Below, piece after piece: positions 1,150 to 1,715 of a DNA stretch of 13,968 bases. The stretch is taken from the IMG/VR virus record IMGVR_UViG_2537562191_000040, positions 1-13,968 of that record; one strand, 5' to 3'. The stretch is from a virus. Its lineage: Duplodnaviria; Heunggongvirae; Uroviricota; Caudoviricetes. The stretch's first letter is position 1. Every line of letters starts with the position of its first letter. The notes under the pieces were generated by a model, which did not search any database, was not told the DNA's origin, and saw only the letters and a list, made by a program, of their open reading frames with translations. The position numbers and the translations under genes are program-made.

Positions 1150-1635
1150 ATGACCACTATTACCAAAGAACGTATTGAATTGTTCATTAAAAATCCGGTT
1201 GAAAACGGGCTTACCCGTGGTGAACAAATGGAACTGGCACGGATTGCGCTGGCATCGCTGGAAGCAGAGCCAGTTGGTGATTTTTATGAATACAAACCGG
1301 ATGACTGGTAGCAGCGTTCGGCTGGAGATAAAGCGCCAAAATGGACGCCACCCTATGCCGTTTTTCCAGCGCCCGTAGTGCCGGAAGAAATGGATTTGCT
1401 TACATGCCATCTCGATGGTGTAACTGAAACATATGCTGAGGGATGGAACGCTTGCCGCGCTGCCCTGCTTCAGGGCAAAGGGGAGCCCGGGAAACAAGTT
1501 CGCGAATTGACAATGCTGGTTAAACAATTGGTTAGTCAACTGAAGAAAGCGAAACCGGGCTGCAAATTGCCGGATAAAGTGATGGACTACCTGGAGCGAA
1601 GCGGACTTATAAGCGTGGAGGATGTTTCACGATGA
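1150..1635 (+). pseudogene. Hypothetical phage early-region protein interrupted by an in-frame amber (TAG) codon at 1309-1311; alternatively two genes, 1150-1311 and about 1378/1390-1635
   Basis: The frame from ATG 1150 (MTTITKERIELFIKNPVENGL...PDDW) continues in the same frame after a single TAG into ...QRSAGDKAPKW...EEMDLLTCHLDGVTETYAEGWNACRAALLQ... The ORF track lists only the downstream part (1378..1635). Confidence 0.4.
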
Positions 1636-1715
1636 CCTGGCCTGAAGCATTCACAACGGTAGGAATTGCGATGGCGGTGGCGCTGGTTGTGTATTCGATT
1701 TGCCGCTGGGGATAA
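1632..1715 (+). CDS. Possible small hydrophobic membrane peptide (27 aa, MTWPEAFTTVGIAMAVALVVYSICRWG)
   Basis: The ATG overlaps the upstream stop (ATGA coupling), and the peptide has one predicted transmembrane helix. It is below the ORF-track length cutoff and was found by reading the sequence. Confidence 0.3.
   Translation: MTWPEAFTTVGIAMAVALVVYSICRWG

Follow-up and report, generated by a model that had tools for sequence, protein, structure and literature searches.

A small open reading frame (sORF) at positions 1632-1715 of a stretch of viral DNA of 13,968 nucleotides (IMG/VR record IMGVR_UViG_2537562191_000040, positions 1 to 13,968; hereafter the window) is very probably a real gene, which encodes a tiny membrane peptide with a single helix and is coupled to the gene that precedes it. 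The reading that we favour, with somewhat better than even confidence, is that its 27-residue product spans the inner membrane once, is expressed early and acts on a conserved membrane component of the host. The conservation of the sORF, the purifying selection specific to its frame, the architecture of its coupling, its context in early operons and the breadth of its family are observed directly. The window is 100% identical to NZ_CP077574.1 from E. coli O111:H8 strain 7-54 11A, in which it forms part of a Rac-like lambdoid prophage at ttcA. The first-pass annotation of the window described the sORF as an unannotated gene whose ATG overlaps the preceding TGA, and this overlap is located exactly where it was claimed to be (Table 1). 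No other possible start codon lies between this ATG and an in-frame stop that precedes it. The term unannotated holds for RefSeq and for the seven phage records inspected, but not for a few GenBank records, in which the product is named "hypothetical protein" or "bacteriophage protein". The Prokaryotic Genome Annotation Pipeline (PGAP) places no annotation on NZ_CP077574.1 between the upstream gene and the methyltransferase gene (window 1635-2067). As to what chance would give, 56 open reading frames (ORFs) of at least 20 amino acids (aa) overlap the first 3.5 kb of the window, so that the existence of the sORF is by itself not beyond chance. The conservation of its frame, the selection specific to this frame, and the recurrence of the ATGA coupling across many unrelated contexts are beyond chance.

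Conservation of the sORF and selection on its frame

The sORF, which had been presented as a gene for a small hydrophobic peptide, is conserved and is found with an intact frame in phages, plasmids and E. coli genomes. A tblastn search detects it in 94 phage records at 59-100% identity, including those of 933W, VT2-Sakai, ArgO145, BP-4795 and Min27. It is present in 181 plasmid records, mostly of non-mobilisable plasmids of about 90-100 kb, and blastn detects it in 1638 of 5426 complete E. coli genomes (30%), with up to seven copies per genome. The blastn homology often spans exactly the sORF from ATG to stop. When a degenerate DNA pattern with 11 of the 27 codons fixed and codon 2 left free is used for scanning, 134 instances are detected, which represent 55 nucleotide alleles and 32 protein alleles, and the commonest peptide is encoded identically by 13 nucleotide alleles. 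The ratio of nonsynonymous to synonymous polymorphism (pN/pS) is 0.33 in the sORF frame, as compared to 1.14 and 1.89 in the two shifted frames, and is 0.51 over the 16 codons left free by the pattern. Codon positions 1 and 2 vary less than position 3, and no constraint is seen in the shifted frames. The pairwise ratio of nonsynonymous to synonymous substitution rates (dN/dS) of divergent alleles ranges from 0.09 to 0.71 and is significant for several pairs, the best of which differs at 11 synonymous and 5 nonsynonymous sites (p = 5e-5). An E. coli-type sORF is also present in a 431-bp contig labelled Xanthomonas pisi (NZ_JPLE01000323.1), which is probably an assembly contamination.

Exact ATG-to-stop homology between unrelated flanks would also be expected if the sORF were an incidental ORF within a conserved non-coding element, either a linker for mosaic recombination or an upstream regulatory part of hok/sok. 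The sORF and the hok leader indeed move as a single block in many phages. This explanation is nevertheless very improbable, because third-position variation is in excess and the shifted frames are unconstrained, because the sORF is present also in the absence of hok, and because only the protein sequence is conserved in its remote homologues. A signal of RNA structure is likewise missing. In comparison with shuffled sequence, the folding of the two strands of the sORF is no better (z = +0.57 and +0.05), and an RNA element on either strand was rejected on this ground. The Rfam scan detects no RNA family that overlaps 1632-1715.

Coupling of the sORF to varied upstream genes

The translational coupling to the upstream gene recurs nearly always in the relatives of the window, together with a conserved Shine-Dalgarno (SD) sequence. 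The sORF starts as ATGA in all of the 134 instances, though codon 2 was unconstrained by the pattern. The stop codon of the upstream ORF is the TGA of this ATGA in 104 of 131 instances, and most of the others have TGATGA. A GGAGG-like motif is located 7-10 nt 5' of the ATG in most upstream contexts. The overlap of start and stop as ATGA restricts residue 2 to T, S or N, each encoded by an ANN codon. A sample that is independent of the pattern consists of 62 loci retrieved via the upstream protein alone. The intact sORF is present at ATGA in 39 of them and a further copy has an ATA start, while most of the loci that lack the sORF have a DUF551 gene in its position. The C-terminal module of the upstream protein (..KLPDKVMDYLERSGLISVEDVSR) often travels with the sORF; the 81-aa upstream protein of the window, WP_000365100.1, has no match in Pfam.

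The sORF is combined with 25 upstream and 19 downstream sequence clusters, and is an autonomous module, given that 45 combinations are observed. In the seven phage records inspected, it begins on the stop codon of varied upstream genes (L0139, DUF551, Ea22, EaA and others), and the next gene, where present, starts 3-8 nt 3' of its stop, so that the sORF fills the sole gap of a packed operon. The gene order in BP-4795, for example, is DUF1317, DUF1382, and, after further genes, Ea22-like, DUF551, sORF, DUF4222, xis and int. The sORF is followed by DUF4222-xis-int as often as by hok/sok, and elsewhere by intrinsic terminators. Its location in early or accessory regions of phages, which the first-pass annotation had suggested, is supported both in the window, where it lies between the replication genes and a Q-like gene, and in the relatives. 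In phages 24-2-1 and Av-05, which are classed as Vequintavirinae, the sORF is part of a lambdoid ea-region, where EaA-like and Ea22-like genes flank it; the region could result from chimeric assembly or from genuine module exchange.

Other small hydrophobic ORFs occupy the position of the sORF after some DUF551 genes (locus L169 at ~2290 and locus L177 at ~1975). Among these occupants are MNKCNALLYAMVIGFGLAAGIRVYITWESLINLAWSAIRG (40 aa) and a 92-aa protein beginning with MDSFAKYTIIDWIAFLQVLLIWFYMAY. The possibility that the position after DUF551 is a hot spot open to small membrane proteins alone was rejected, because several soluble proteins are also located there and the locus sample is biased. 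The apparent clustering of the sORF product with "DUF551 domain-containing protein" was rejected as well, as an artefact of transitive clustering and of partial calls at contig edges.

The tight spacing on both sides would also be explained if translation of the sORF itself, rather than its product, were useful. According to this explanation, the sORF passes ribosomes to DUF4222, or couples transcription and translation to the end of the operon, and the peptide is functionless. The 4-nt overlap upstream and the next start 3-8 nt past the stop in the DUF4222 contexts are consistent with such a relay, and the conserved CGN-TGG-GGA-TAA end is purine-rich and could act as the SD sequence of the next gene. 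However, purifying selection acts at the amino acid level and is confined to the sORF frame. The WPEAF..VG..aromatic..R/K arrangement and the hydrophobic core are kept in phages of 40-66% GC content, whose nucleotide sequences are unrelated. In addition, many contexts offer nothing to relay to, since the sORF is succeeded there by a terminator, a hok promoter or a convergent gene. The relay is therefore improbable.

The first-pass annotation likened the product to type I toxin peptides. The product shares with Hok, TisB, DinQ and ZorO a very small size, hydrophobicity, a single helix and location on phages or plasmids, and with 27 aa it is a small hydrophobic membrane peptide below the limit of ~60 aa of this class. 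TisB, DinQ and ZorO are type I toxins that are comparable to it in size and hydrophobicity. If the sORF encoded such a toxin, its product would damage the membrane, would be held in check by an antisense RNA and would serve prophage maintenance. The presence of hok/sok immediately downstream of the sORF in 48 of 127 contexts agrees with this proposal, but the other features of the sORF do not. Neither an antisense RNA, nor a repressed mRNA of its own, nor a match to Hok/Gef (PF01848) or another toxin family is found. The only Rfam match nearby is that of the hok leader (1757-1881), and the absence of folding beyond shuffled sequence applies to both strands. No promoter-like site is detected on the minus strand in 1300-2100 by a simple scan, which could miss a weak promoter. 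Instead of a promoter and a structured leader of its own, the sORF has a strong exposed SD sequence and an obligatory ATGA coupling to diverse genes within early operons, and it is present in up to seven copies per genome. Because the sORF is just as common without hok nearby, before DUF4222-xis-int or terminators, it is not part of hok/sok. The resemblance to type I toxins noted at first probably arises because a true hok/sok adjoins downstream in ~38% of the contexts and a remnant of it in the window. Thus, a type I toxin is an improbable identity for the product.

A few relatives suggest yet another explanation, in which the sORF encodes a detachable C-terminal membrane anchor that is joined to the upstream protein by frameshifting or fusion. 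Rare in-frame fusions carry a WPDAF-type peptide as a C-terminal hydrophobic tail; one of them, P0098 (143 aa), passes the Pfam cut-off for Ead_Ea22, and another, P0100 (206 aa), is just below it. However, such fusions make up only a small fraction of the 55 representatives, and the proteins encoded upstream are unrelated to one another. The sequence at the junction varies with the context and contains no conserved slippery site before the ATGA; a programmed frameshift was rejected on this ground. It is thus very unlikely that the peptide serves as an anchor.

The WPEAF family and the proposed action of the peptide

The sORF product founds a broader, widespread family of phage peptides that has not been catalogued so far, and represents the enterobacterial branch of this family. 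We define the family, termed WPEAF, by M-x-W-P-(E/D)-A-F-x-x-V-G, nine hydrophobic residues, W/Y/F, three variable residues and R/K, with a total length of 25-35 aa. The window peptide fits every position of this core. Searches of Pfam, NCBIfam, PHROG, PADLOC and PDB give no match to the sORF peptide at the curated threshold or at E < 0.01, and only hydrophobic noise (KdpF, DUF883_C, B12D, TRI9) is seen below the threshold. Word-indexed and exhaustive protein searches, the latter with a 40-aa in-frame extension of the peptide as a query, give only entries from Escherichia, Shigella and Salmonella, which are named "hypothetical", "bacteriophage protein" or, wrongly, "DUF551 partial". Profile and pattern searches recover remote homologues. 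A profile search of 1.84 billion representatives detects remote metagenomic small ORFs with the WPEAFxxVG signature. A second DNA pattern, which demands Trp at codon 21 and thereby excludes the E. coli type, detects 14 viral contigs with a GC content of 0.40-0.66; the number of chance matches is estimated to be far below one when uniform base composition and ~100 Gb of sequence are assumed. All of these 14 contigs encode hydrophobic ORFs of 25-30 aa that end with R/K, and 12 of these ORFs start as ATGA, though the pattern required neither the ending nor the overlap. When the 32 most diverse family members are aligned, no gaps are needed. A search with the family alignment detects 164 clusters among 5.8 billion proteins, all of them "hypothetical", one of which is from Acidovorax sp. 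RAC01. An example of a remote member is MSWPEAFATVGCAFAFVAFIWILTR.

The remote members are always located in early operons for replication or recombination, usually with a 4-nt overlap with the preceding gene. One of them is located behind a YqaJ exonuclease gene of a prophage of the Acidovorax type and is followed downstream by RdgC and dUTPase genes, and others are located behind RusA, GapR-like, DUF669 or HNH genes. Remote members are also found before a gene for the DNA polymerase III beta subunit, or at the very end of an early operon that faces the late genes. Nothing relevant is found when the literature is searched for the peptide strings or "WPEAF". A term search finds no mention of a transmembrane protein in the 2024 Ea22 paper and the 2021 exo-xis modelling review. 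No WPEAF peptide is encoded by the lambdoid cryptic prophages e14, Rac, Qin and DLP12 of E. coli K-12, and no ORF of this type is located between exo and xis in the 27.5-45 kb region of phage lambda, whereas the corresponding region of Shiga toxin (Stx)-type phages contains it. The catalogue of intergenic small genes from ribosome profiling (Ribo-seq) of the enterohaemorrhagic E. coli strain Sakai does not list the sORF, but is confined to ORFs of at least 30 aa, so that the 27-aa sORF is outside its scope. The family has been overlooked because it has no entry in libraries or papers, is absent from lambda and the K-12 prophages, and falls below the size limit of this catalogue.

The single hydrophobic helix noted in the first-pass annotation is also predicted here, with a 19-residue Kyte-Doolittle mean of 2.1 for residues 6-24; for the predicted transmembrane segment, values of 2.1-2.3 are obtained. 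Throughout the gapless alignment of the 32 diverse members, position 5 is E/D and position 25 is R/K. Aromatic residues are located at positions 3 (W3) and 21 (W/Y/F21), and the sORF peptide has W26 in addition; these residues would occupy the two interfaces. According to the positive-inside rule, the charges of E/D5 before the helix and R/K25 after it would give an N-out/C-in topology. With one predicted helix and flanking charges that define its topology, the peptide would belong to the class of small single-pass inner-membrane proteins. The conservation of the sORF peptide is concentrated at both ends and at G11, A15 and A17. A conserved helical face or a small-xxx-small interface was considered and rejected, because no periodicity is detected (p = 0.69). 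In relatives, in-frame insertions of (AM)n or (AV)n at the hexanucleotide repeat give peptides of 29-35 aa, and the length of the helix is therefore variable.

Several small inner-membrane proteins of E. coli have been characterized by Hemm, Storz and colleagues, such as YohP (27 aa), KdpF, AcrZ, MgtS and PmrR, and those with a known function bind a larger membrane protein. The sORF peptide resembles these proteins in that they consist of 25-50 aa, have one transmembrane helix and are missed by annotation pipelines. It differs from them in being encoded by phages, in having a WPEAF..VG signature of its own and in showing no sequence similarity to them, the score against KdpF being 14.7 bits at a cut-off of 26.85. 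Pf3 coat protein is a single-span protein of the N-out/C-in type, which is inserted by YidC. It resembles the sORF peptide in its short acidic N-terminal tail, its one hydrophobic helix, its C-terminal end (..R-W..) and its predicted orientation, but the sORF peptide is not a virion protein, is not homologous to it and is about half as long. HK97 gp15, T4 Imm and P22 SieA are small inner-membrane proteins of phages that act in superinfection exclusion. Like the sORF peptide, they are encoded by phages, reside in the inner membrane and have no enzymatic domain. However, they are larger, usually specific to a lineage and often expressed from the prophage, whereas the sORF family spans distant phages, is located in early lytic operons and has no predicted promoter of its own. 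The genes of the exo-xis region are early, pL-driven and accessory, and influence the lysis-lysogeny decision (PMC10834534). The exo-xis proteins Orf60a, Orf61, Orf63, Orf73, Ea22 and Ea8.5 are encoded in the same neighbourhood as the sORF in Stx-type phages, but these proteins are soluble, and the sORF is absent from lambda.

From these data we infer the translation, topology, expression time and target of the peptide as follows. The sORF would be transcribed only from early promoters, as part of a delayed-early operon of the phage. This operon would correspond to the stretch from the replication genes to Q in the Rac-like prophage, and to the exo-xis region in Stx phages. No promoter-like site for the sORF is detected in the 330 nt scanned upstream (1300-1631). 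Ribosomes that end translation of the upstream gene would restart at the ATGA by termination-reinitiation, aided by GGAGG 7-10 nt upstream. The acidic N-terminus (M-x-W-P-E-A) would be transferred to the periplasm, and the basic C-terminus (R25) would remain in the cytoplasm. Spontaneous or YidC-assisted insertion is probable, because the charge layout matches that of Pf3 coat protein. In the inner membrane of the host, the peptide would act alone during early lytic development, by binding a conserved membrane component. Such a component is favoured over a strain-specific receptor because the motif spans phages of 40-66% GC content and has no constant partner gene. The preservation of the 11-residue N-terminal signature over this range likewise suggests a common conserved target in the host.

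Several points weigh against this proposal. The conservation at the 11 codons fixed by the first pattern is partly circular, because the pattern imposed them, although this circularity is mitigated by the pattern-free searches. Degraded copies of the sORF exist, of which one has an ATA start and three are frameshifted, and some others are extended by loss of the stop codon. Homology statistics are weak for peptides of 25-30 aa, and hydrophobic composition can inflate the scores. The lack of helical-face periodicity mentioned above leaves no clear interface for helix packing. Translation is deduced from sequence, the Ribo-seq catalogue checked having its limit at 30 aa. Finally, IS1203 is located ~860 nt upstream of the sORF in the window, and the upstream gene contains an in-frame TAG, so that expression of this copy may be impaired.

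If the peptide is translated, it may well be a modulator of a conserved membrane protein or machine of the host, a role to which we give slightly less than even confidence. A role in superinfection exclusion or in blocking DNA entry is unlikely, and a membrane-permeabilising or toxic action is unlikely to the same degree. Some other function is rather doubtful, but less so than either of these two. A bolder proposal, which is speculative and held with low confidence, is that WPEAF peptides are widespread early effectors of N-out/C-in topology that bind one universally conserved inner-membrane machine and contribute to the lysis-lysogeny decision and induction of Stx phages. YidC/Sec insertase, FtsH/HflKC, and a divisome or lipid II component are examples of candidate machines. 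If this proposal were true, the effector would share the phenotypes in Stx lysis-lysogeny and induction that have so far been credited to the soluble exo-xis proteins. Deletions of neighbouring genes may have removed the sORF or silenced it by polarity, because it is located in the exo-xis region, which affects Stx induction. Annotation systematically misses small membrane proteins, and the sORF is not called in RefSeq in spite of its presence in 30% of the complete E. coli genomes. The WPEAF family offers a tractable entry point, as a peptide of 25 residues is easily synthesised or mutated.

The hok/sok remnant and the surrounding prophage

The features of the window are summarized in Table 1. 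The first-pass annotation placed the sORF directly next to the left border of an island. The border is indeed nearby, but the junction is located at ~1815-1836, 100-120 nt past the stop codon of the sORF, and a hok/sok remnant lies in between. The match to RF01794 at 1757-1881 has a score of 50.2 bits (E = 3.4e-10), whereas the gathering score is 59. The relatives 933W, L035, L067 and L132, among others, have an intact mok/hok/sok behind the sORF, and genuine Hok (MKQQKAMLIALIVICLTV...) is encoded ~200 nt further downstream. The mok and hok reading frames are absent from the window, in which only the promoter, the leader and the 3' terminator remain. The low-GC methyltransferase island (~1836-5942, ~4.1 kb) replaced the interior of hok/sok, because the homology to loci with an intact sORF and mok/hok breaks off at 1814 in 47 loci and at 1835 in 4 loci, and that to the hok 3' terminator resumes at 5943-5985. 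The GC content falls from ~0.5 to 0.30-0.38 across the island. The island was thus inserted into the hok/sok addiction module and destroyed it. The island genes at 2067-5566 may represent a defence or modification module.

Table 1. Positions of the sORF, its signals and other features in the window
Feature	Position	Strand	Remarks
sORF coding sequence	1632-1715	+	27 codons and TAA; product MTWPEAFTTVGIAMAVALVVYSICRWG
ATGA start/stop overlap with upstream gene (translational coupling)	1632-1635	+	ATG 1632-1634, TGA 1633-1635
SD sequence GGAGG	1617-1621	+	10 nt 5' of the sORF ATG, within the 3' end of the upstream gene
Upstream gene (PGAP call)	1390-1635	+	81 aa, WP_000365100.1; contributes the stop codon for the coupling
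Predicted transmembrane segment	1647-1703	+	Residues 6-24; N side W3/E5, C side Y21..R25-W26
(GCG-NTG)x3 hexanucleotide repeat	1668-1685	+	Encodes AMAVAL; site of in-frame expansion in relatives
hok/sok remnant (promoter region and 5' leader)	1716-1835	+	Rfam RF01794; separate from the sORF
Dcm-type type II cytosine methyltransferase gene	2067-3218	+	In the low-GC island
Methyltransf_35 "O-methyltransferase" gene	3186-4178	-	In the low-GC island; no PADLOC match
GHKL/HATPase_c_3 ATPase gene	4175-5566	-	In the low-GC island; no PADLOC match
Two tRNA genes	7646-7718; 7822-7895		
Small RNA STnc100	8668-8860	+	Rfam, above gathering score
Anti-GcvB small RNA AgvB	8861-8922	-	Rfam, above gathering score

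The window begins with a part of IS1203, followed by small hypothetical genes at 876-1139, 1150-1311 and 1390-1635 and then by the low-GC block. The genes downstream of this block are DUF1367, DUF1364 and DUF1133 genes, two tRNA genes and lysis genes. The genes at 1150-1311 and 1390-1635 share a frame, are parted by the TAG at 1309-1311, and match the N- and C-terminal parts, respectively, of one 114-aa protein of ArgO145. Together they resemble a mosaic gene that was split or interrupted by a nonsense codon. Their sequence is common, at 100% identity, to the listed O157 and O111 genomes. The part of IS1203 (IS3 family) at window 1-~800 is its 3' part and interrupts a DUF4014 gene. The prophage contains a second IS1203, which is located ~12 kb beyond the first and interrupts an antirepressor gene.

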